42,546 nucleotides of DNA from Chthonomonadaceae bacterium. Lineage in GTDB: Bacteria > Armatimonadota > Chthonomonadetes > Chthonomonadales > Chthonomonadaceae. Where the stretch lies: NCBI GenBank assembly GCA_035650735.1, contig DASRGZ010000033.1:1-42546 (forward strand), written 5' to 3'. Positions within the stretch are counted from its first letter, which is position 1, and the number at the start of each line of letters is the position of its first letter. Position numbers and translations under genes: made by a program. Under the pieces are notes generated by a model. The model was not told where the DNA came from, made no database searches, and saw only the letters and a list, made by a program, of their open reading frames with translations. Shown here one piece after another: positions 29,261 through 42,546 of the stretch.

Positions 29261-29430
29261 GAAATTTTAACCCGCCGATAAGCGAACGATGGGCGGCGGC
29301 GTGTCAAAGGCGAAATCGGAAAAGCCCACGCTTCAGGAGCGCTGCATTTAGAACTTCCGCCTCATGTCTACTGGACGAGGGGTTAGAGGGTGAGGGCCTG
29401 TGAGGGTATCATGGAGGCGTGGAATCCCAT

Positions 29431-30463
29431 ATGCCGCATGTCGAAAAGTCAATCTCGAAGCAGGCAGTCGCCAGCACACGCCGACGCAGACGGCGGGGGC
29501 TGCGCCGGATAGGCGCGGCGATTGTGCTGTTGGCGCTGTTGCTTATCGCCGACTACTGGGCCTATCCTTATGGAACTCATCTCGGCGGGCGCAGCCTCAA
29601 CACGGGGGAGAACGGCCTGTGGCTGCGCTATACCTGGTACTTCGGCCAACACAGCGACGCCGACCTACGACGTCTAGCGCAGCAGTTGGGCGAGCGGCAG
29701 ATTCGCTATGCCTACTTCCATGTGCGGGGCATCACCAGAGCGGGCACGCTCGCGTACCGCTATCCCGACCGGGCGCGGCATCTGATCGCGCTGATGCATC
29801 GGGAAGTGCCCTCGGTCAAGGTCATCGCCTGGGTCTATGCGGGCAATCGGCGTGGCGCAGGGGAGGTGGATTTAAGCAATCCGCGTGTTCGGCAGGCGAT
29901 GGTCGGCGAGGCGGTCTGGCTGGTGACGGCGGGCGGTTTCGACGGTGTGCAGTGGGACTACGAAATCTGCGACAATGCCGACCCTGACTTCCTGAACCTG
30001 ATGCACGAGACCCGTGCCGCGCTGCCGCAGGGCAAGCTGCTCTCCACCGCCACTCCGCTCTGGCTGCCGCGCCCCCTGCTGCGGTGGGGATGGAGCGAGG
30101 ACTACTTCCGTCAGGTGGCAGCAACGTGCGACCAGATCGCCGTCATGTGCTACGATTCGGGCTTCTACCTGCCGCGCAGCTACGTCTGGCTCGTCCGCCA
30201 GCAGGCGATTCATGTGACCCAGGCTGTCGCCAGAAGCAACCTGCGCTGCCGCGTGCTGTTGGGCATACCGACCTACGAGCGCGGCTTCTTCTCGCATAAT
30301 CCCCACGCCGGGAAATATCGCCCTGGCGCTGCGCGGCGTGCGCGAGGGGCTATCCCATCCCAGCGCCAACCCCTCTGTTTGGGCGGGCGTCGCGCCCTTG
30401 GCCGACTACACCACCGACGCCAGCGAATGGGAGACATATCGCACCCTCTGGCTGGAGCGCTGA
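29431..30463 (+). pseudogene. membrane-anchored GH18-like glycoside hydrolase, frameshifted near 30310
   Basis: TM anchor; FDGVQWDYE and DQIAVMCYD motifs. A +1 shift after HNPHA restores NIALALRGVREGL...ADYTTDASEWETYRTLWLER ending at TGA 30461-30463, just before the convergent csaB stop. Confidence 0.7.
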
Positions 30464-30468
30464 TAGCG

Positions 30469-31596
30469 TTATTTTGTTATGGCGAAGCGGTAGAGACGTT
30501 CGGCGAGGGAGAAGGCGATTTCGGCGTTGCGGAGGGCGAGGCGTTCCAGGTGCGGGACCTGAGCGCAGAGGGAGGCGGAGCGCGCTTCCCGGTCGGCCAG
30601 GATAGCGGCGACGCGCGCGGCGACCTCCTCCGGGTCGAAGCCGCGCCAGTGCTCCAGAGAGTCGGCCAGGCCCAGGTTGCGCATCAGGTTTTCCACTTTG
30701 GGATCGTAGGAGAGCGCGAAGGGAGGCACGCCCATGCGGGCCGCGAAAATGAGCGCGTGCAGGCGCATGGCGACGACCGCCTGCATCCGCCCGACCAGTC
30801 CTAGCAGCATGTCCGGCGGATAGGGACGGCCCACGATGGGGAAAGTGCCCGTTCCCTCTGCGTTCCGAGCGACCTCCTCCGTGAAGGCCACGTCGCCCGG
30901 CGTCTGCATTGGCAGCAGCACGACGCGCGCCTTGCACTGTGCCTCCAGCTCGGCCAGCAGGCGCGCGTAGGACTTGACCGGGGACTCGCCCCCGCCGCCC
31001 CAGGGCCGTAGCGCCACGCCGATCAGCGGCGCGTCGGCGGGCAGGTTTTCGGCCTCAAAGAGCGCATCTATGGAGCGCGCAGAGGCCGGCGTGAGGGCAA
31101 AGGCCGGGTCTGCCGTGACCTCTATTGCCGGGCGGGAGACGCCCAGCGCGGCCAGCAGTTGCGCGGAAGGCGCGTCGCGCACCGTGATATAGGCGGCGCG
31201 GTTCGCCACGAGGCGCACCAGCGCGCGCGAGACGGCGCGGCGCAGCGGCCCCACCCCCTGCGCATAGAACATCGTCGGTACGCCCGCGCTATAGGCCAGG
31301 CGAATCACCCAGAGGTAGTAGAGCAGCGAGCGGACGCTGGTCGTGTCCTGGAGCAGGCTGCCGCCCCCGGAAAGCAGCAGGTCACTTCCCTTCAGCGCGC
31401 GGCGCACCGCCGACAGGTTCATGCGGTCTACCGCCGCCAGCCCATGCAGCCGTCGGGTTTCCTCCGGGTTTTGGGAAAGAACCGTCAGATCCGCCGCCTC
31501 GCCGGCACGCCGCGCGAGCGACTCCTTGATCCCCGCCAGGACCGCCTCATCGCCCGCGTTGCCGCACCCATAGTAGCCCGATACTACAAATCGCAT
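30469..31596 (-). CDS. csaB: polysaccharide pyruvyl transferase CsaB
   Basis: SGYYGCGNAGDEA, SGGGSLLQDTTSVRSLLYY, AQGVGP, MRLHALI, YDPKV. Confidence 0.92.
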   Translation of the reverse strand: MRFVVSGYYGCGNAGDEAVLAGIKESLARRAGEAADLTVLSQNPEETRRLHGLAAVDRMNLSAVRRALKGSDLLLSGGGSLLQDTTSVRSLLYYLWVIRLAYSAGVPTMFYAQGVGPLRRAVSRALVRLVANRAAYITVRDAPSAQLLAALGVSRPAIEVTADPAFALTPASARSIDALFEAENLPADAPLIGVALRPWGGGGESPVKSYARLLAELEAQCKARVVLLPMQTPGDVAFTEEVARNAEGTGTFPIVGRPYPPDMLLGLVGRMQAVVAMRLHALIFAARMGVPPFALSYDPKVENLMRNLGLADSLEHWRGFDPEEVAARVAAILADREARSASLCAQVPHLERLALRNAEIAFSLAERLYRFAITK

Positions 31597-31610
31597 GACT
31601 CTAGGTCGCC

Positions 31611-33764
31611 TCAGGTTGTCATCGTCTCAGGAACCGTTTCCCGCACAACGGGGCGCGCCTCCCTTGTGGTTACAGACGCTTCATCCGACGGGGGCGGAAA
31701 AAAAAACTCGGCCAGGATAAACAGCGCCGCGCCGATCAGCGCGCCCAACACCAGCCCGATACCGTCGCGCCAGATAGAGAGGAGCAGCGGCGTGTGGATG
31801 TGGCAGAACGTGTTGAGCAGCGAGACCTGCCCCAGGCTGCCGACCACGAAGAACGGGAGCGCCAGCTTGCGCCGTCCGCGCCACCACCACGCCAGCCCCA
31901 GCAGCAGCGCCGGATGCCCGATCAGGAATTCTTTCGTGCGCGGGCGCACTGGCAGCACCCGGTCGAGGACGGCCCGCACCTTCATCTCGAAGCCCGAAAC
32001 GCCCACGCCGGGATCGTTGCCTGTGCGCGCCACCACCAGCGCCAGTGCCGCCAGCGCCGCCACGCCCAGCACCAGCAGGCCGAACCGCACTGGCTCATTC
32101 CAGAGGGCGCGTAGGCGCTCCGTAACACGACGCCGGTAGTGGTCCCAGCTTTCGCGCGGCGCGGCGGCACCGCCCAGAAGGGCCGCCACGGCCACCAGCA
32201 CGACGGGAATGGCGTGCTGGGCCTTGATGCCCAGGAACTGGCTGGCATGGAGCATGAAGGGCCGCGTCGCCAGCAGCCCGATCACCTGGAGGATGCCGAG
32301 CGCCGTGATCGCGCTGGCCAGTCCCAGGCCGCGCAACGCCGCCACCAGGCACAGGCGTTTCTGGTTGCGGTCGAACGCGCTGGGATCATCGCCGGATACG
32401 AGGGCAAACGCGGAGCCGGAGCGCGGGAAGACCCGCAGGCACGCCGCCGTCGGGAAGACGATCCCCGCCAGCAATGCGACCAGCTTGCGGCCCATCTCGC
32501 CCGCGTCCGCCGCCAGCCCGGCGCAGATCACGCACAGCCCGATCAGCAGCAGCGCCTGGCTGCGCGGCGGCAGCGGACAGAACAGGCGCAGCATCCAGAC
32601 CGTGCCCGCCGCCGCGCCCAGCGCGACCAGGGCAAACAGCACGGCAGGAAGGTGCGTCTCCTCGAACGGATGCGCCTCGCCAAACTCGAAAGCCCCGCCC
32701 GTGACCGCGCTGTTGCGCTGGATGCCCTCCGCAATTTTCTTGACGTATTCGACGTTCGCCGCGACGGGATCGGCCCCGGCCATCGTCAGCAGGCGCACGA
32801 AGCAGAACCGGATGTTGCGCTCGCGGGCGGCCCGCACGAAGCGTTCGATGGCCTCGTTCTCGTCGAGCTGAGCCATCTCCGCCGCCTGAACGGCGTGCAC
32901 GCGCACGTAGTCGCCGTGCAGCGCCGCCGTCAGCTTATCGTCGCCCTTCTGCTTGCTGAACTCTACCGCGCCATAGGTCAGCGGGATAGGCGCAACGCCT
33001 GCCGAAGCGCTGGCCTCGCCGGGGGCCGGATGGCGCAGCAGCGCCGCGACCTCCGGCTCCAGGCCGCGATAACCAAGAACGTCGTCGCCGACAAAAATGA
33101 CGGTGGAGGTGCCCTGTGCGCTCAAATTCCGCAGGACGTTGGCCGCCGTAGTGGGCGTGACGCCGGGAAAATTGCTGATGCGCCCGGCGATATATAGGTG
33201 CGCCGCCCGTGTCGCCGCCACCGCATCCGGGTTCAGGCCCAGGCCCAGCGTCCGCAGGTTCGCGTATTCGACCGGAACCGCCACGCCTTCCAGCGTGCGG
33301 CCCGTCGCCTTATCCACCAGGGCAAAGAGCGTTCCCCCGACGGGCACGCTGGTGGCCTGCCCCCCGCCGAGCGGCAGGAGTCCGCGCACCTGCAATGCCG
33401 TACGTATCCGCTGCAGCGTCGCCGCGTTATCCACCTCGACCAGCGTGCCCAGCCCGCCATGGGCCGCCGGAACGCGCGCCGGACGAGTCGCGCCCGTCTG
33501 ATCTAAGGTCGCAAGGGTCTCCTCGTTGAGCACCAGGGTGCTGACGCCCTGCGCCTTGAACTGGTTCAGTACCTCCCGCAGCGGCATATGCTGCGGATTC
33601 ATCTGCGCCAGGTTGGAGATTTCCGACCACTCCAGCGCGATCTCGACGCGCCGATTCCTGGCTTCTACATGGAACCGCCGGAACGCGGCCAGCAGCCCGG
33701 CCACCGTTCCGACGGCGATTAAAACTGCCCATACCAGCGGGAGCGCCCGCAAACGATTTTGCAT
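31611..33764 (-). CDS. DUF5693 family membrane protein
   Basis: RAARERNIR, FLGIK, RTGN, VRPRTKEFLIGHP, NTFCHIHTP; typical upstream neighbour of csaB. Confidence 0.85.
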   Translation of the reverse strand: MQNRLRALPLVWAVLIAVGTVAGLLAAFRRFHVEARNRRVEIALEWSEISNLAQMNPQHMPLREVLNQFKAQGVSTLVLNEETLATLDQTGATRPARVPAAHGGLGTLVEVDNAATLQRIRTALQVRGLLPLGGGQATSVPVGGTLFALVDKATGRTLEGVAVPVEYANLRTLGLGLNPDAVAATRAAHLYIAGRISNFPGVTPTTAANVLRNLSAQGTSTVIFVGDDVLGYRGLEPEVAALLRHPAPGEASASAGVAPIPLTYGAVEFSKQKGDDKLTAALHGDYVRVHAVQAAEMAQLDENEAIERFVRAARERNIRFCFVRLLTMAGADPVAANVEYVKKIAEGIQRNSAVTGGAFEFGEAHPFEETHLPAVLFALVALGAAAGTVWMLRLFCPLPPRSQALLLIGLCVICAGLAADAGEMGRKLVALLAGIVFPTAACLRVFPRSGSAFALVSGDDPSAFDRNQKRLCLVAALRGLGLASAITALGILQVIGLLATRPFMLHASQFLGIKAQHAIPVVLVAVAALLGGAAAPRESWDHYRRRVTERLRALWNEPVRFGLLVLGVAALAALALVVARTGNDPGVGVSGFEMKVRAVLDRVLPVRPRTKEFLIGHPALLLGLAWWWRGRRKLALPFFVVGSLGQVSLLNTFCHIHTPLLLSIWRDGIGLVLGALIGAALFILAEFFFPPPSDEASVTTREARPVVRETVPETMTT

Positions 33765-35267: not shown

Positions 35268-36806
35268 ATGTCTCATTCCAATCATGGCTCTTTCGAAGTC
35301 GAGCCGAGCCATCCTGGCTATTCCGAATATACGGCCCTGCCCGTCTCGGCGCGCGAGGCTGCCCTCGGAGACGACTCGGGTGAGCTTGTCCCAGCTTTCC
35401 CTGCGGTCGTCTCCCCGGAGCCCCTGCCGATTCCAGAGGCCGCTGCCGAGCCGACGCCGCGTGAGCTCCATCGGGCCGTCTGGACGCTGGCCTGGCCGTC
35501 CGTGATGACCATGCTGCTCCAGACCTTCAACAGCCTGATGGACACCTTCTTCGTCGGGCACCTGCCCTACGGCGCGCAAGCTCTGGCGGCAGCCGGCGTG
35601 GGCGGCAACGTCATCTTTCTGATGGTCTCGCTGGCGATGGGGGTGACGGTGGCCGTGACGGCGCTGGTGGCTCGCTTCACCGGAGCCGGTGATCACGACC
35701 AGTGCGCTCATGCGACGGGGCAAGGGCTGACGCTGGCCTTTTTGCTGGCGCTGCTCTTCGGCGTTCCGGCCTATGCCTGGCGGACGCAACTGGTCGGCCT
35801 GATGCTGGATACGCATCACAACCCGCAGGCGGCGGCCCTGTGCGTGCAGTTCCTCGGCGCGGCGCTCCTGGGGACGGTCCCGCTGTTCCTGATGAACGTG
35901 TTCCATGCGACCTTTCGCGGCCTGGGCGATACCCGCACGCCCATGCTGGTAACGTTGGCGGTCATCGCCACCCATATCACCTTCAACGCGCTGCTCATCT
36001 ACGGCAAGCTCGGCTTCCCAGCGCTCGGCGTGGCTGGCGCGGGAACGGCGCTGGCGATCTCGCAAACCGTCGGCATGCTGCTGTTTCTGTTTATCCTGCC
36101 CCGCTACTCCTCGGTTGCCGATGCCCTGCAGCGCAAGCATCTGATCTTACGTCCGGAGTGGGCCTGGCGTATCCTGCGCATCGGCCTGCCTGCCGCACTG
36201 CAAGCCGTGATCCGCACGCTCTCCATGACCTCCTTTATCGGCGTGTTGGCGCGCGCGGCGGAAGGGGCGGCGGGCGTGGCCGCCCTCCAGATCGGGCTGC
36301 GCGCGGAGTCGGTGGCCTTTATGCCGGGCTTTGGCTACAGCGTGGCGGCCTCGGCGCTGGTGGGGCAGAGCCTGGGAGCGCGCAACCCGGAACGCGCCGA
36401 ACGCTACGGCTGGGCGGCGACAGGGCAGGCGATCCTGGTGATGTCTACGATGGCTGCGCTCTTTTTCTTAATGGCCCATCCGTTCACGCGGCTGTTCACC
36501 GGCGACCTGCTGGTGCGGCGCCTGGGCGTGGAGTACCTGCAGGTGATCGCGCTCTCGGAGCCGTTCCTGGCGCTGGGCATGGTGCTGACCGGCGCTCTCC
36601 AGGGAGCAGGCGATACGCTGCGCCCGACCGCCATCACCATCTTCACCATGTGGATTTTGCGCCTGCCGCTGGCCTACTGGCTCATGTTCCACCTGCATAT
36701 GAACTCGCGGGGCGCCTGGATCGCTATGGCCATCTCCACCGTCGCCGGTGGCCTGTTGACCGTCGGCCTCTTCCGATCCGACAAGTGGAAGCGGATCAAG
36801 GTCTGA
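35268..36806 (+). CDS. MATE family efflux transporter
   Basis: LAWP...MDTFFVG, FRGLGDTRTP, LGVAGAGTA, RIGLP, GQSLGA, LQGAGDT. Confidence 0.92.
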   Translation: MSHSNHGSFEVEPSHPGYSEYTALPVSAREAALGDDSGELVPAFPAVVSPEPLPIPEAAAEPTPRELHRAVWTLAWPSVMTMLLQTFNSLMDTFFVGHLPYGAQALAAAGVGGNVIFLMVSLAMGVTVAVTALVARFTGAGDHDQCAHATGQGLTLAFLLALLFGVPAYAWRTQLVGLMLDTHHNPQAAALCVQFLGAALLGTVPLFLMNVFHATFRGLGDTRTPMLVTLAVIATHITFNALLIYGKLGFPALGVAGAGTALAISQTVGMLLFLFILPRYSSVADALQRKHLILRPEWAWRILRIGLPAALQAVIRTLSMTSFIGVLARAAEGAAGVAALQIGLRAESVAFMPGFGYSVAASALVGQSLGARNPERAERYGWAATGQAILVMSTMAALFFLMAHPFTRLFTGDLLVRRLGVEYLQVIALSEPFLALGMVLTGALQGAGDTLRPTAITIFTMWILRLPLAYWLMFHLHMNSRGAWIAMAISTVAGGLLTVGLFRSDKWKRIKV

Positions 36807-36963
36807 CCCTGCCCTCGCAATTCTGCCTAAATTTTCCCCGTAAAAAAACTATGATACAATATAGAGATAGGCGGTCCGAGGAGGAACGGGAGGAGCGGAT
36901 CGCCTCCCGTTTCCCGCATCAGGTCCGTAGTGCAGCCGTTTTCCGGGCGGGGAGGAAACCGAG

Positions 36964-38316
36964 ATGAACCAGACACAACCCTGGCCGCGCTGTCCGGAGG
37001 CAGCCGGCTTTTTTGACAGGCAGCTTCGCACTTTTGCTGCCGCCAACCCACCGATTGAGGCGATGGCGGCGCGCTTCCATAATGCAGCGGGCGTCCTGCT
37101 GCAAAACCTGATCGATCACTGGATTCTGCCGGAAACGCCCGGCCTGCCGGAAGAACTGGCGGCGCTGGGCTTGGTGGAGACGGTACTGCCGGAGGGCGAC
37201 CGCCTCTGGAAGCATCCACAGGCCCGTCTGCCGGGCGTGCGGTTCAAGCGCAACCTCCAGGCGCCCCGGCTGGCGCTGGCCGTCGAGGACATTCCGCTCT
37301 TTGCCGAGGCCAACGGCCTGACGCTGACCGGCTGCCACGGCGACCCCGACTCGCGCTACCAGTGCGGCCATGTTGCGCTGCCTCACGGCGAACTGATGCC
37401 CATTGCACGGCGGGGCTATGGCGGATTTGCGCCCGGCACCCTCAGCCTAGCGGAATCGCAGCAGTTGGGACACGCGCGGGAGGCGCTCCACAGCCGTGAC
37501 CGCAGCGGCAGCGCCCTGGAGGTCATCACGCGCACGCAGAAGCTGGTCGAGAGCGTCATCGGCGACATCGGACGCGACCGGGCCGTGGAGGAGTTCTTCG
37601 CCGCCGAGCGCGCCTACTATATGACCCGCAACCGCGCCGCCCGCTGGCAGTATGAGCAGCAGCAGCGGATCGGCATTGGCTGGGCCAACCACGACCACCA
37701 CACCTACCGCTGCTCCCGCGATAGTTTCCGCGCCCTGATGCAGCTCTGGCAGACGCTCGGCTTCGAGATGCGCGAGCGGTTCTATGCGGGCGCGGAGGCC
37801 GGATGGGGCGCGCAGATCCTGGAGCATCCGGTCAGCCGGATCATCCTCTTCTGCGACCTGGATCTGGCCCCAGAAGAGCTGGACATTGATTTCTCCCGCG
37901 TCGATCTGGCGCAGCGCGACACGCTGGGAACCATCGGCCTGTGGTGCGCCCTGCACGGCGACAGCGTCGGCACAGCGGGCCTGCATCACCTGGAGGCCGA
38001 GTTCGACTTCGCTCAGGAGCAGACGCTGCTGGAGGCCGCCGGGTTCGGCGTGATGGCTCCCTTCACCGACCTGCCGATGCTCAAGCAAGCCTTCACCGAA
38101 GCCGAGATCTGGCCGGTGGCGCCGGAGCGCGTCGAAGCTCTGCGCGCGCGCGGCCTGATCACTGCCGGGCAGGCGGAACGCTTCCTGGCACAGGGCGCGG
38201 CGGGCAGCCACCTGGAGATCCTGCAGCGCTGGGAGGGCTTCAAGGGCTTTAACAAGACGGGCGTGAGCGCCATCATCCAGGCCACCGACGCCCGAAAAAC
38301 CTCTCAACAGGATTAA
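36964..38316 (+). CDS. uncharacterised VOC-superfamily protein with HPPD/HglS-like metal motifs
   Basis: 450 aa; GGAGG RBS; NHDHHTY, AGLHHLE, LKQAFT, HLEILQRWEGFKGFN. Confidence 0.65.
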   Translation: MNQTQPWPRCPEAAGFFDRQLRTFAAANPPIEAMAARFHNAAGVLLQNLIDHWILPETPGLPEELAALGLVETVLPEGDRLWKHPQARLPGVRFKRNLQAPRLALAVEDIPLFAEANGLTLTGCHGDPDSRYQCGHVALPHGELMPIARRGYGGFAPGTLSLAESQQLGHAREALHSRDRSGSALEVITRTQKLVESVIGDIGRDRAVEEFFAAERAYYMTRNRAARWQYEQQQRIGIGWANHDHHTYRCSRDSFRALMQLWQTLGFEMRERFYAGAEAGWGAQILEHPVSRIILFCDLDLAPEELDIDFSRVDLAQRDTLGTIGLWCALHGDSVGTAGLHHLEAEFDFAQEQTLLEAAGFGVMAPFTDLPMLKQAFTEAEIWPVAPERVEALRARGLITAGQAERFLAQGAAGSHLEILQRWEGFKGFNKTGVSAIIQATDARKTSQQD

Positions 38317-38453
38317 CAGGATTTCTCAGGATTTACAGGATTAATGTATAAGCCTTATAGACAGGATTGACAGGATTTCAACAACACAGACAAACCCTGT
38401 GTGATTGTGTGGTTGAAATCCTATCAATCCTGCAAAATCCTGTTAATCCTGTT
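38305..38453. repeat. family-C ACAGGATT inverted tandem repeat element
   Basis: CAACAGGATTAACAGGATTT... / ...AATCCTGTTAATCCTGTTG; supplies the stop codon of the upstream gene. Confidence 0.8.
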
Positions 38454-38482
38454 GGGTTTTTGTTTTTGAGGGAGTTTTAGGT

Positions 38483-39982
38483 ATGCACGACGGTAGGACG
38501 AACTACATAGGCGGTGAGTGGCGCGCGGCCATGGCGGGCGCGACGTTCGAGTCGGTCAACCCGGCGCGCACCGAGGAGGTGTTGGGGCGCTACGCGCGGT
38601 CGCAGGGTGAGGATGTGGAGGCGGCGGTCGCGGCGGCAGTGGCGACGTTTCCGGCATGGCGGCGTACCCCGGCCCCGGCGCGCGGCGCCATTATAGAGCG
38701 CATGGGGCGGCTGCTGGAGGCCCGCAAAGAGGAGTTGGCCCGCCAGATGGTTGCCGAGATGGGCAAGGTGCTGGTGGAGGCGCGCGGCGACGTGCAGGAA
38801 GCCATTGACATGGCCCACTATATCGCCGCGTTTGGCCGTCTGCCCAACGGCAGCCTCGTGCCCTCGGAGCGCCCCGACATCTTCTGCGCGGCCCAGCGCG
38901 TGCCAGTCGGCGTCGTCGGGGTCATCACGCCCTGGAACTTCCCTATCGCCATCCCAAGCTGGAAGATCTTGCCGGCGCTGCTGGCAGGCAACACGGTCGT
39001 CTTCAAGCCGGCGGAGGATACGCCGGGCCTGGGCGTCGCCTTTGTGGAGCTGCTGATTGAGGCCGGACTTCCGCCGGGCGTGGTCAACCTAGTCACGGGC
39101 TACGGGCCGGAAGCGGGCGCGGCGCTGGTCGAGTCGCCAGGGGTCGCTGTTCTCTCCTTCACCGGCTCAACCGAGGTGGGACGCCAGATCGCGGGGCGCT
39201 GCGGCCAGTTGATGAAGCGGATAAGCTGCGAGTTGGGCGGCAAGAACGCGATTGTGGTATTAGACGACGCGAACCTGGAGTTGGCGCTTAAGGGCGCGCT
39301 GTGGAGCGCATTTGGCACGGCAGGGCAGCGCTGCACGGCGGCCAGCCGCCTGATCGTGCAGCGGGGCATTAAGCAAAAGTTCCGTGATGCACTGGTGGAT
39401 CGCACGCGCGCACTGAAGATCGGCGCAGGAGCCGACCCGTCCGTAGAGATCGGGCCGGTGGTCAATCGCGCGCAGTTGCGCCGTATTCATGGCTATGTCG
39501 AGATCGGCAAAGCGGAGGGCGCGAAGGTGCTGACCGGAGGGCGCATCCTGGACGAGCCGGAGTATGCGCCGGGCTGCTTCTATGCGCCGACGGTGCTAGA
39601 TGAGGTTGAGATGCCTATGCGCGTGGCTCAGGAGGAGATCTTTGGGCCGGTCACGGCGCTCATCGAGGTGGACAGCCTGGACGAGGCCATCGCCGCCGCC
39701 AACGGCACGCAGTACGGCCTCTCGCTCTCCCTCTACACGCGCGACGTCAACAGGGCGTTCCGCGCCATGCAGGAGCTGGAGGCAGGCATTGTCTATATCA
39801 ACCTGCCCACGAGCGGCGCAGAGATTCAGTTGCCCTTCGGCGGCGTCAAGCAGACCGGCAACGGGCATCGGGAGGCGGGCTGGACGGCGATGGACTACTG
39901 CACCGAATGGAAGTCCATCTACGTCAACTACGCCGAGACGGAGGAACTGGTCCGCGCCCAGATCGACACGCAGCCAGGCTAA
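38483..39982 (+). CDS. NAD(P)-dependent aldehyde dehydrogenase
   Basis: ITPWNFP, KPAE, FTGST, ELGGKN, GQRCTA, EEIFGP, PFGG. Confidence 0.95.
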   Translation: MHDGRTNYIGGEWRAAMAGATFESVNPARTEEVLGRYARSQGEDVEAAVAAAVATFPAWRRTPAPARGAIIERMGRLLEARKEELARQMVAEMGKVLVEARGDVQEAIDMAHYIAAFGRLPNGSLVPSERPDIFCAAQRVPVGVVGVITPWNFPIAIPSWKILPALLAGNTVVFKPAEDTPGLGVAFVELLIEAGLPPGVVNLVTGYGPEAGAALVESPGVAVLSFTGSTEVGRQIAGRCGQLMKRISCELGGKNAIVVLDDANLELALKGALWSAFGTAGQRCTAASRLIVQRGIKQKFRDALVDRTRALKIGAGADPSVEIGPVVNRAQLRRIHGYVEIGKAEGAKVLTGGRILDEPEYAPGCFYAPTVLDEVEMPMRVAQEEIFGPVTALIEVDSLDEAIAAANGTQYGLSLSLYTRDVNRAFRAMQELEAGIVYINLPTSGAEIQLPFGGVKQTGNGHREAGWTAMDYCTEWKSIYVNYAETEELVRAQIDTQPG

Positions 39983-40011
39983 ATTTTCGCCTAAGAGATA
40001 CCGAAAAGACT

Positions 40012-40266
40012 CAACAGGATGAATAGGATTTTGCAGGATTTACAGGCTGAAGATAAAAGCCGGTAATCCCTCCCAACGGTGTTGACGTATCTCCTCAGCA
40101 GCAGGCTGCGGGAGATTGATCCACACGGCTGGGAGTGTCTACCTAAAAGCCATTTAGACAGCATTAACGGGATTAACCGGATTTCAACAACTCAGAGAAG
40201 CAAGGCTTGCTTGTCTTTTTCTAATCCTGTAAATCCTGTTCATCCTGTCCAATGTTAATCCTGTTG
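40012..40266. repeat. family-C ACAGGAT inverted tandem repeat element interrupted by MITE copy 2
   Basis: CAACAGGATGAATAGGATT..., AGACAGCATTAACGGGATT..., ...AATCCTGTAAATCCTGTTCATCCTGT...AATCCTGTTG. Confidence 0.75.
40062..40143. mobile_element. 82-bp MITE, copy 2
   Basis: 81/82 identical to 8025-8106; flanked by 8-bp direct repeat TAAAAGCC (40054-40061, 40144-40151). Confidence 0.9.
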
Positions 40267-40292
40267 GAAATAGAAATAGAGTAGAGAAAGGC

Positions 40293-41627
40293 ATGGTGGG
40301 TATGTTGACGGAAGAGCGCGTTGTGGAGTTATGTGGGGAGGGACTGCTGGCGGAGGTCGTTGGCTTTGAAACCGACGAAGTGGCTCTGGCTGCGCAGGGA
40401 GCCTCGGTAGTCACCTATCGCGGAACGCGCTACATTGACTTTACCGGCGGTATTGCCGTGCACGCCTGCGGCCACAACCACCCGGAGGTGATTGCGGCGA
40501 TTGTGGAGCAGGCCGGGAAGGTCATGCACGTCTCCGACACCATGCGCCACGCCCCACAGTTGGAGCTAGGCCGGTGGATGCGGGATCTCTTCGGGCTGCT
40601 GCTGCCCGGCGCTCCCTGGTCGTTTCTGTTCCTCAACAGCGGCAGCGAGTCGATAGATGCGGCGGCCAAGCTCGCCCTGAAGGTGACGGGCCGCACGAAG
40701 TTCGTCGCATTTGAGGGCGCGTTTCATGGGCGAACGCTGTTCGCTACCGCCCTGTCCCACTCCAAGCGCCTGCATTGGGAGGCGTACGAGGGCTTTCTGG
40801 TGCCGCTGCGCGCCAACATCCATCATGCGCCCGCCCCCCGCTGCGCCAAATGTCATGCCTGCAAGCCGACAGCATGCTGCGTCGCGGGGCTGGAGCGGCT
40901 GCTAAACGAGATGGGCGGCGACGTGGCGGCGGTCGTTTTCGAGCCGCAGCAGGGCGAGGGCGGCTACGTTCCGATGGCGCCCGCCGCCGCGCAGCGCATA
41001 CGCGAGCTAACCAGCCAGCGCGGCATCCTGCTCATCGCCGACGAGATCCAGACCGGATGGGGCCGCACGGGCCGCTGGTTTGGCTTTGAGCACCTGGGCA
41101 TCGCCCCGGATATCGTCGTCTTTGGCAAGGCGGTCGGTGGGGGCCTGCCGCTGGCGGGCGTGGCCGCGCGCCAGGAGATGATGGCCCTGTGGCAGCCTGG
41201 GGAGCACGGCACCACGTTTGGCGGCAATCCGGTGGCGTGCGCAGCCGGGCTGGCAGCCTTGCGGATCATCGAGCGGGAAGGGCTAATCGAGCGCGCGGCG
41301 CATCTTGGCGAGATCCTCAAGGCGCGGCTGCGGCCCCTGGTCGGCCAGCACGGCGTCGTGGATGTGCGCGGCAATGGCCTGATGATCGGCGTGGAGCTAC
41401 GCGATGCGGCGGGCCGACCGGACTATGCGCGCTGCGAGGCGGTGAAACGCCGCGCCCGGGAAGCAGGGCTGCTGCTGCTGACTTGCGGCGCCAAGATCGG
41501 CAATCCGGCGACCGACAATGCGACTCTGCGCCTGATCCCGCCGCTCAACATCCCAGAGGAGGTTTTGCAAGAGGGACTGGACATCTTCGAGGCCGCGCTG
41601 CAAGAGGCCACCGCCAAAGCCGCCTGA
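40293..41627 (+). CDS. class III PLP-dependent aminotransferase (GabT/ArgD/LAT-like)
   Basis: YIDFTGG...GHNHP, NSGSES, AFHGRT, EPQQGEGG, DEIQTG, FGKAVGGG, HGTTFGGNP. Confidence 0.93.
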   Translation: MVGMLTEERVVELCGEGLLAEVVGFETDEVALAAQGASVVTYRGTRYIDFTGGIAVHACGHNHPEVIAAIVEQAGKVMHVSDTMRHAPQLELGRWMRDLFGLLLPGAPWSFLFLNSGSESIDAAAKLALKVTGRTKFVAFEGAFHGRTLFATALSHSKRLHWEAYEGFLVPLRANIHHAPAPRCAKCHACKPTACCVAGLERLLNEMGGDVAAVVFEPQQGEGGYVPMAPAAAQRIRELTSQRGILLIADEIQTGWGRTGRWFGFEHLGIAPDIVVFGKAVGGGLPLAGVAARQEMMALWQPGEHGTTFGGNPVACAAGLAALRIIEREGLIERAAHLGEILKARLRPLVGQHGVVDVRGNGLMIGVELRDAAGRPDYARCEAVKRRAREAGLLLLTCGAKIGNPATDNATLRLIPPLNIPEEVLQEGLDIFEAALQEATAKAA

Positions 41628-41700
41628 TCCTCTGTTCCGACATTGGCGCATCGCTCTATCCGTTCGTATGTTATAATTAGGATGAAGGCAAAAGGTAAAC

Positions 41701-42546
41701 GTTAGTCCTCCCGAATTTTGCAGATTGGCACCGGGATAGGCTAAGAAGAGACGGCTTAAGGCCGCTCGCAATCGGTACAGCGGAGCCTGGATTTCCTGGC
41801 TCCGCTTTCCTGTGCGATGGCAAAAGCAGCGCAACAGCCATTGACATAGTGGTTGGAGCAGCGGATCGAGCAAGCTCAAGAGGAACGCAGAACAGAGCGT
41901 GACCATCCGTAATAGTTTGCGCCGTCCCTCCCAACTCCACAGCCGCGGACTCTCCATGGCCAGTTCACTCTTGGTGTAGCGGAAGGTCTGTTCGATCTGC
42001 CAGCGGCGTCCATGGCGCAGCACACTCTTCCAGGCCACTTCGGCGCTCTCTTGGGGCTGGTTGGTTAGCAGATACCAGGGAGCCAGGCCCGGCTTGCCGG
42101 GACGAGAGACCACCAACCACAGAGGCGTGTCGGGATAGTCCGGATGCTTGACCGGCACAGCCACTACGCCTACCAGACGATGACAGCGCCGCCTGGCATC
42201 AAAGAGCAACCGCTTCTGCCAGCTACGCTTGCCTCGGGCTATCTGCCAGGCTTTGCGCTTTCTGCCCTGGGCGTCGAGCAGGCTCCAGCCCTTGGGCCAG
42301 CGCACAATAAAGGGTACTTTCTTCTCCAGCAACAGTCCCAGCCAGGAACTGCCCGCAAAGCCCCGGTCGAAGATATGCCGCAGGCGCGCTCCCCAGGCGG
42401 CCACACACTCCCGGAGCAAGCCCTCCTGGACGGTGCGGGCCTTTGTAGCCTGCGGGCCCCTTGTGCTAAACCAGCGCATGCAGGCCCCATGCGGCCTACC
42501 CTGCCTGCCACAGACCAGCAGGCACAGCCAGCGCAAGCCGGGCACG
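41701..42546 (-). mobile_element. IS4-like DDE transposase, 3' part (5' part outside window), probably degenerate
   Basis: HIFDRGFAG, PWYLLTN, HGRRWQIEQTFRYTK (YREK signature with Y replaced by H). Transposase-like sequence ends near QNSG (~41708); the ORF then reads antisense through the aminotransferase. Element boundary approximate. Confidence 0.8.

Follow-up and report, generated by a model that had tools for sequence, protein, structure and literature searches.

A duplicated HglS-like protein family with a putative role in lysine catabolism in a Chthonomonadaceae bacterium

The window analyzed here is a 42,546-nucleotide stretch of DNA (positions 1 to 42,546 of contig DASRGZ010000033.1, assembly GCA_035650735.1) from a Chthonomonadaceae bacterium of the phylum Armatimonadota. 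Near its end lie three co-oriented open reading frames (ORFs) for a 450-aa protein, an aldehyde dehydrogenase (ALDH) and a class III aminotransferase, in the order given by an earlier note on the same DNA. Judged by its fold, its conserved residues and its gene neighbors, the 450-aa protein is probably a remote, duplicated form of HglS that converts 2-oxoadipate to 2-hydroxyglutarate. It would be HglS-like in its working mode, yet it is not a member of the HglS family PF07063 by either model or architecture. The genes and domains in question are as follows.

36964..38316, + strand: gene of the duplicated HglS-like protein, 450 aa, putative 2-oxoadipate dioxygenase/decarboxylase (ORF, family search, fold model)
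36964..37437, + strand: N-terminal HglS-like domain, approximately residues 1-158, probably non-catalytic (separate fold, structure and profile matches)
37540..38316, + strand: C-terminal HglS-like domain, approximately residues 193-450, predicted catalytic (structure matches, conservation, profile alignment)
38483..39982, + strand: aldehyde dehydrogenase gene, 499 aa, putative aminoadipate-semialdehyde dehydrogenase (Aldedh, E 6.7e-169)
40293..41627, + strand: class III (omega-type) aminotransferase gene, 444 aa, putative substitute of lysine 6-aminotransferase (Aminotran_3, E 2.6e-108)

The predicted model of the 450-aa protein had a mean pLDDT (predicted local distance difference test) of 93.2 and a pTM (predicted template modeling score) of 0.92. 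When the whole model was compared with solved structures by VIA-align, the top three matches were 3iuz (Z 16.4), 6w1k (Z 16.2) and 3lho (Z 15.7), aligned over approximately residues 163-449; 6w1k is the rice hydroxyglutarate synthase FLO7, superimposed with a root-mean-square deviation (rmsd) of 3.3 over 212 residues. Hydroxymandelate synthase (HMS; Z 12.5-13.0), Pseudomonas putida HglS (12.1-12.4) and 4-hydroxyphenylpyruvate dioxygenase (HPPD; at most 12.2) ranked lower, the whole HPPD/HMS group ranging from Z 8.7 to 13.0. The HPPD/HglS-like dioxygenase of the earlier note is thus supported as a vicinal oxygen chelate (VOC) fold, with the refinement that the protein is closer to HglS (Z 15.7-16.4) than to HPPD (Z at most 13.0).

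The N-terminal half is a domain of its own: residues 5-180 folded alone with a pLDDT of 95.9, and their best structural matches were again 3lho (Z 11.8), 3iuz (11.6) and 6w1k (10.7), followed by 2rjb at 7.7. This half alone thus matches whole short HglS chains, and the HglS architecture of one domain per chain does not describe the protein. Against a profile of 120 short HglS proteins, the N-half profile gave an E-value of 1.2e-5, above all 40 block-shuffled decoys. The C-half profile, aligned over 178 colinear columns, gave E 0.019 at a probability of 2.5%, which is weak by itself, and its score of 23.3 was narrowly above all 40 block-shuffled decoys (best decoy 20.8). Compared with each other, the two half profiles gave E 0.0023. 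Since both halves match short HglS chains and profiles, the protein as modeled consists of a short HglS-type domain duplicated in tandem.

The motif set described in the earlier note was recovered in the same order, with NHDHHTY at residues 242-248, GLHHL at 339-343, LKQAFT at 373-378, LEILQR at 417-422 and GFKGF at 425-429. Conservation was assessed in an alignment of 80 rows (the query, 5 relatives from the search and 74 mostly full-length proteins of the 150 listed representatives at 50% identity; mean column identity 35%), in which H245 was kept in 76, R249 in 70, H342 in 71, Q375 in 71 and E418 in 74 rows. These motif residues do not occur by chance, and the predicted His/His/Glu set remains in place at the level of sequence. 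Invariance among the 175 proteins of the loci described below is in part a consequence of the patterns used to find them, and the 80-row alignment was preferred. In the C-half profile alignment, the same five positions stand opposite the His, Arg, His, Gln and Glu of short HglS, which makes H245, H342 and E418 the predicted metal ligands and R249 the predicted substrate clamp. Both R249 and the internal duplication go beyond the motif set of the earlier note. The structural study of HglS gives His70, His226 and Glu294 as its metal ligands, attributes strict specificity for 2-oxoadipate to Arg74 and states that rice FLO7 relies on the corresponding Arg64 alone (10.1101/2020.01.30.927905). Further conserved residues of the C-half are D298 (70 of 80 rows), H341, Q375, the HPPD-like F377 (66 of 80), H416 (69 of 80) and R422, and F296 was present in 97 of 98 aligned rows, the remaining row having a gap. 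In the N-half, D51-H52 are kept and positions 102 and 145, equivalent to the second and third ligands, are variable; because these two positions vary, the N-terminal domain has probably lost its metal site and is silent.

No Pfam match and no meaningful NCBIfam match were found for the 450-aa protein, a match to SfnG (E 0.0018, 17.7 bits against a cut-off of 383) being dismissed as noise. Among 8,000 scored candidates, its relatives formed at least 5,497 clusters at 90% identity (E at most 0.001), and 511 family representatives were obtained at 50% identity; the earlier view of an unrecognised family was thus borne out. PF07063 matched neither the 450-aa protein nor any of the 80 aligned members at E 0.01, nor did any other relevant Pfam family, and sequence searches of the Protein Data Bank with the protein and two profiles returned nothing significant. 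The ESM Atlas gave unnamed clusters only when searched by features, and VOC, HglS and HPPD clusters when searched by structure. No description of the family was found in the literature searched at the level of titles and abstracts, which mostly left out subscription journals and excluded supplements. The closest named relatives are proteins of Chthonomonadaceae and Armatimonas, and the named carriers include Armatimonadota, Planctomycetota, Verrucomicrobiota, Chlamydiae, Aminicenantes and Ca. Brocadia. Two long members look like fusions, P0287 with an oxidase linked to flavin adenine dinucleotide (FAD) and P0288 with a class III aminotransferase. Because both are single-member clusters with family parts missing (part of the first helix pair in P0287, the C-terminal motifs in P0288), they count only as signs of adjacency.

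Gene neighborhoods were compared at 80 genome loci, the best of 571, comprising the 21 closest and 59 others, and at 80 metagenome loci, the best of 554 when ranked against a distant family member. Around the 21 closest genome loci, the ALDH of the window type was present in 15 and the aminotransferase in 10. The other 59 had a saccharopine-dehydrogenase-like gene in 18, an ALDH like AmaB in 15 and a gene like that of lysine 6-aminotransferase (LAT) in 2 cases, with at least one of these in 21 loci. All five AmaB-like neighbors tested scored above the cut-off of the curated model NF050084; one of the two LAT-like neighbors was above its cut-off, the ORF of the other being incomplete. Among the 80 metagenome loci, 10 had an AmaB-like, 6 a LAT-like and 2 a saccharopine-dehydrogenase-like gene, and in 5 an FAD-linked dehydrogenase lay at most 1.3 kb upstream of the family gene; at least one of these was present in 16 loci. 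Locus L159 reads amaB, lat, FAD dehydrogenase and family gene, in this order. In a FastTree tree of 175 members, these contexts, which comprise four different gene sets, fell into separate clades. Since the saccharopine-dehydrogenase family also contains polyamine enzymes (among the members listed), the substrate of the saccharopine-dehydrogenase-like gene rests on its linkage to amaB. The FAD-oxidase neighbors at loci L002, L032 and L061, considered as evidence of a D-2-hydroxyglutarate dehydrogenase, were rejected as GlcD-like and were not counted except as a tree label. The link to lysine catabolism drawn in the earlier note is thus supported by LAT and AmaB neighbors in several clades, with a majority of loci without such genes against it. 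A separate observation concerns canonical short HglS genes, which stand beside a succinylarginine dihydrolase gene (astB) in two genomes (L110:2-1315 and L112:104-1426), hinting at a link to arginine catabolism.

Co-occurrence was examined in genome samples of three phyla. In Armatimonadota, the family was present in 25 of 251 genomes, including all 14 of the source's own family, Chthonomonadaceae. An orthologue of the aminotransferase occurred in 18 of the 25 carriers compared with none of 20 non-carriers (20 of 226 being tested), and matches to the ALDH of at least 60% identity were present in 17 carriers and in none of the same 20 non-carriers, two of which had matches of 52-56%. PF07063 was found in none of the 251 genomes; as HglS was not found at all, this sample cannot test whether the family and HglS exclude each other. 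In the 201 genomes of Verrucomicrobiota (the phylum of locus L067, Verrucomicrobium), 5 had the family, 7 AmaB and 3 HglS. An amaB gene lay within about 3 kb of the family gene in all 5 carriers, compared with AmaB in 2 of 196 non-carriers (P 2e-7 without the seed genome, with kin that are not independent), and HglS occurred in none of the carriers and in one of the two other amaB genomes. The Planctomycetota sample (the phylum of locus L025, Schlesneria; n = 201) contained the family in 16, HglS in 15 and AmaB in 85 genomes. Over the three samples, PF07063 was present in none of the 46 family carriers. In the Planctomycetota sample, 74 of the 85 AmaB genomes had neither HglS nor the 450-aa family, and there must therefore be another exit route for 2-oxoadipate in them.

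Seven of the 16 planctomycetal carriers encode proteins 65-100% identical to a Ca. Brocadia record and represent the anammox lineage. Their members are intact (loci L084, L086-L089, L091 and L094 in genomes G385, G435, G281, G424, G323, G304 and G371), and a class I aminotransferase gene lies just upstream in 5 of the 7, the one tested scoring above the cut-off of the PRK06836 model. One of these genomes also has a second, internally deleted family copy (L098/L100, G304:C5:1852169-1852524; profile positions 6-61 followed by 412-451) directly before an FAD-linked oxidase gene.

The partner enzymes of the window belong to the expected classes. The earlier note had related them to the LAT and aminoadipate-semialdehyde dehydrogenase steps, as putative functions; the enzyme classes were upheld, whereas the cut-offs of the curated LAT and AmaB models were not reached. 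The ALDH scored 367.6 bits with the AmaB model NF050084 (cut-off 730), and its best models, both for 2-oxoglutarate-semialdehyde dehydrogenases, gave 514 and 495 bits, also below cut-off. Aligned with AmaB proteins, it nevertheless keeps the aminoadipate-binding set of ALDH7, namely E106, R283-C284-T285 and G445-A446; the comparison covers these three motifs. In two studies, the Glu, the Arg-Cys-Thr and the Gly-Ala loop are described as holding aminoadipate (PMC11362210, PMC13162559). Only one of the five ALDHs examined in the source genome, that of the window, has all three motifs, and it can putatively be considered an aminoadipate-semialdehyde dehydrogenase. The aminotransferase matched best to PRK08117 among NCBIfam models (372.8 bits, cut-off 574) and reached no curated cut-off among its best 25 of 69 families. 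The LAT model TIGR03251 (cut-off 520.8 bits) lay outside these 25 and hence below 226.9 bits, and the closest solved structure was the gamma-aminobutyrate (GABA) aminotransferase of Escherichia coli (E 3e-76). Identity to true LAT and AmaB was 27% for the aminotransferase and 34% for the ALDH, respectively. Orthologues of LAT, AmaB and the saccharopine-dehydrogenase-like gene are missing from the source genome (97.6% complete), as is HglS (PF07063), and a canonical HPPD (TIGR01263, with Asn at His+4) is encoded on contig C163 beside an hmgA-like gene. The simplest reading of these sequences is that the ALDH/aminotransferase pair replaces LAT and AmaB; the lysine role of both partners is deduced from active-site residues and from the genes that take their place in other phyla. 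Candidates for the last step are a 1,042-aa YdiJ-like protein (348 of 1,350 bits) and a GlcD-like protein.

Several results weigh against a 2-oxoadipate-converting role in lysine breakdown. In sequence, the predicted catalytic half resembles HglS only weakly (see above), and the conserved D298, H341, F377 and H416 replace Ser, Asn, Ser and Tyr of short HglS. No YdiJ above the cut-off was found in the source genome. No lysine gene was present in the flank covered at 38 of the 59 other genome loci and at 64 of the 80 metagenome loci, many of these flanks being short. One clade of the family follows genes of a PfkB kinase and an epimerase instead (9 of the 80 metagenome loci as well as L052 and L069). 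In Armatimonadota, five carriers lacking both partners were tested, and one had AmaB and none LAT or a saccharopine-dehydrogenase-like gene, leaving four with none of the three. In Planctomycetota, the zero overlap between the family and HglS (16 and 15 of 201 genomes) is not significant (P 0.27), and co-occurrence with AmaB had to be rejected as support, being found in only 4 of 16 carriers, no more than by chance. AmaB was absent from all seven carriers of the anammox lineage, as were LAT and the saccharopine-dehydrogenase-like gene from the four tested, with positive controls. Anammox bacteria are anaerobes, and an O2-using enzyme without its upstream pathway is a puzzle there for an HglS-type function. 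The PfkB/epimerase context, like that of 7 loci in which the family gene stands behind ABC-2 transporter genes, may be lineage synteny. As a side note, the PfkB/epimerase clade (L052, L069, L133-L135, L139, L141-L143, L148 and L150) includes records of Chlamydiae, and the genes at L052 were typed as ADP-heptose enzymes.

An alternative that is unlikely, though worth weighing, is that the first gene is indeed HglS-like and its partners serve ornithine, GABA or 5-aminovalerate, or that the aminotransferase is a 2-aminoadipate transaminase, in which case the operon would not encode the lysine epsilon route described here. Both partners score below the cut-offs for LAT and AmaB, models of GABA and acetylornithine aminotransferases outscore LAT, and the 2-aminoadipate transaminase model NF049976 gave 289 of 650 bits; moreover, PP_4108 of P. 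putida is an example of an enzyme of this kind that acts as a 2-aminoadipate transaminase (10.1101/450254). Opposed to this are the position of the pair, which occupies the place of LAT and AmaB in other phyla, the lack of orthologues of LAT, AmaB and the saccharopine-dehydrogenase-like gene in the source genome, and the anchor loop of the ALDH, which is Gly-Ala as in ALDH7 and not Gly-Ser as described for ALDH4 in PMC11362210.

It is rather unlikely that the family forms a fourth branch among two-substrate 2-oxo-acid oxygenases, or an offshoot of them that works without O2, with a chemistry of its own set by D298, H341, F377 and H416; in the anammox lineage this would mean an unknown O2-consuming or O2-free reaction in an anaerobe. 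Another reading, in which an HglS-type oxygenase uses a different substrate or forms a different product (such as the 2-oxo acid of lysine or some other polar 2-oxo acid) and the partners act after it, appears quite unlikely. It would account for the replacement of HglS residues by D298, H416 and F377 on strands lining the site (their orientation being deduced from strand register) and for the best models of the ALDH being 2-oxoglutarate-semialdehyde dehydrogenases. The same three residues are, however, also found in relatives beside LAT and AmaB, whose pathway ends at 2-oxoadipate, and the ALDH has the Glu that binds the alpha-amino group in ALDH7, which fits an amino-acid semialdehyde.

Very unlikely is an O2-independent VOC metal enzyme (isomerase, epimerase or lyase) acting on an intermediate of the lysine pathway. 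It would explain the members in anaerobes such as the anammox lineage, and the matches of methylmalonyl-CoA epimerase and glyoxalase folds at Z 8-9 and the extra conserved His and Asp residues would suit it; however, the closest folds belong without exception to decarboxylating dioxygenases or to their family, the nearly invariant F296 stands where we take the fourth ligand of VOC isomerases to be, and most named carriers belong to lineages that are presumably aerobic. An HPPD- or HMS-like enzyme for an aromatic 2-oxo acid is hardly credible: a two-domain layout with a silent N-half, a QxFT motif with Phe and the top Foldseek E-values of HPPD and HMS speak for it, but those Foldseek matches have an rmsd of 18-20 A (3lho aligned at 6.2 A), VIA-align puts HglS-type chains higher, the Asn that HPPD has at His+4 is an Arg here, the source genome has a separate canonical HPPD beside its hmgA-like gene, and no aromatic-catabolism gene was found among the recurring neighbors scanned.

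If the 450-aa protein is a duplicated HglS acting on 2-oxoadipate, its C-terminal domain would bind Fe(II) through H245, H342 and E418, the metal would chelate the 2-oxo-acid end of the substrate, and R249 would hold the far carboxylate. An O2-driven decarboxylation and hydroxylation would then yield CO2 and (probably D-) 2-hydroxyglutarate. Upstream, the class III aminotransferase of the window would remove the epsilon-amino group of lysine, the ALDH would oxidize the resulting semialdehyde to 2-aminoadipate, and an unlinked aminotransferase would convert this to 2-oxoadipate; downstream, an unlinked FAD dehydrogenase would turn 2-hydroxyglutarate into 2-oxoglutarate. In this case, at least 5,497 clusters (90% identity) of hypothetical proteins would gain a function, a missing step of lysine breakdown would be filled in genomes of Armatimonadota, Planctomycetota and Verrucomicrobiota without detected HglS, and Armatimonadota would have a second, non-orthologous enzyme pair for the steps from lysine to aminoadipate. 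The chemistry itself would already be known from HglS, with the anammox members as an open puzzle.

The remaining features of the locus concern its spacers and its upstream gap.

36851..36860, + strand: possible extended -10 promoter element in the gap behind the MATE gene (from reading of the sequence)
38303..38461, no strand assigned: palindromic repeat element in the first spacer (tandem 9-10-nt units with their reverse complement; fold z -9.7)
40005..40267, no strand assigned: second copy of the palindromic repeat element, in the second spacer (fold z -7.4)

The possible promoter element is absent from the four sites called by a sigma-70 scan, and the promoter and terminator scans of the window gave nothing informative. 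The first gene, called divergent in the earlier note, is so in its sequence but not in its orientation, since the MATE gene that precedes it (35268-36806) has the same orientation. The palindromic element occurs at approximately 59 places genome-wide, with 197 tandem arrays compared with 0-40 for control hexamers; it is not specific to the operon and looks like a repeat of the MITE (miniature inverted-repeat transposable element) or REP (repetitive extragenic palindrome) type. No copy turned up in the loci of close relatives. Contigs C18, C52, C161 and C219 of the source genome contain four short ORFs that share a GxxExxY-like motif and that we take to belong to the GxxExxY family, and a rough test showed no link between such genes and the element. 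Just past the operon, a DDE transposase fragment (41397-42545, - strand) runs off the contig end. Elsewhere in the window, a csaB-type polysaccharide pyruvyl transferase gene (above cut-off) follows a DUF5693 gene (30469-33764, - strand), which together form a pair for cell-wall anchoring that is mostly described in Firmicutes. An ORF resembling glycosyl hydrolase 18 (29419-30804, + strand) overlaps the csaB gene, and its frame seems to drift near residue 300, possibly due to a frameshift.

Compared with known systems, the family is nearest to short HglS (DUF1338, PF07063; 6W1K, 3LHO, 3IUZ), which provides the closest folds for both halves and has the His-x3-Arg, the second His, the Gln, the Glu and the C-terminal GF...TD motif in register. 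It differs in a structural identity of only 15-18%, in the lack of a PF07063 match (0 of 80) and in having two tandem copies per chain. Its genes stand at some loci beside lysine aminotransferases, as do DUF1338 genes according to 10.1101/450254. Long HglS (PP_5260 of P. putida, 6W1G/6W1H; YdcJ, 2RJB) has the same core fold (Z 12.1-12.4), a similar length and the same predicted reaction, whereas the extra length of the family is a duplicated domain, and long chains match the N-half much less (2rjb, Z 7.7). HPPD (TIGR01263) and HMS have in common with it the VOC fold, the His/His/Glu set, a silent N-terminal domain and the QxFT motif; unlike HPPD, the family has Arg instead of Asn at His+4 and D298 instead of Asn in the PxNE strand, a register that we partly assume, and TIGR01263 gave no match to the 450-aa protein. 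Finally, the route of LAT (TIGR03251) and AmaB/ALDH7 (NF050084) has the same enzyme classes as the window pair, in the same place beside the family gene and with the ALDH7 residues kept, while the window pair is non-orthologous to it (27% identity to LAT, 34% to AmaB) and below both cut-offs.

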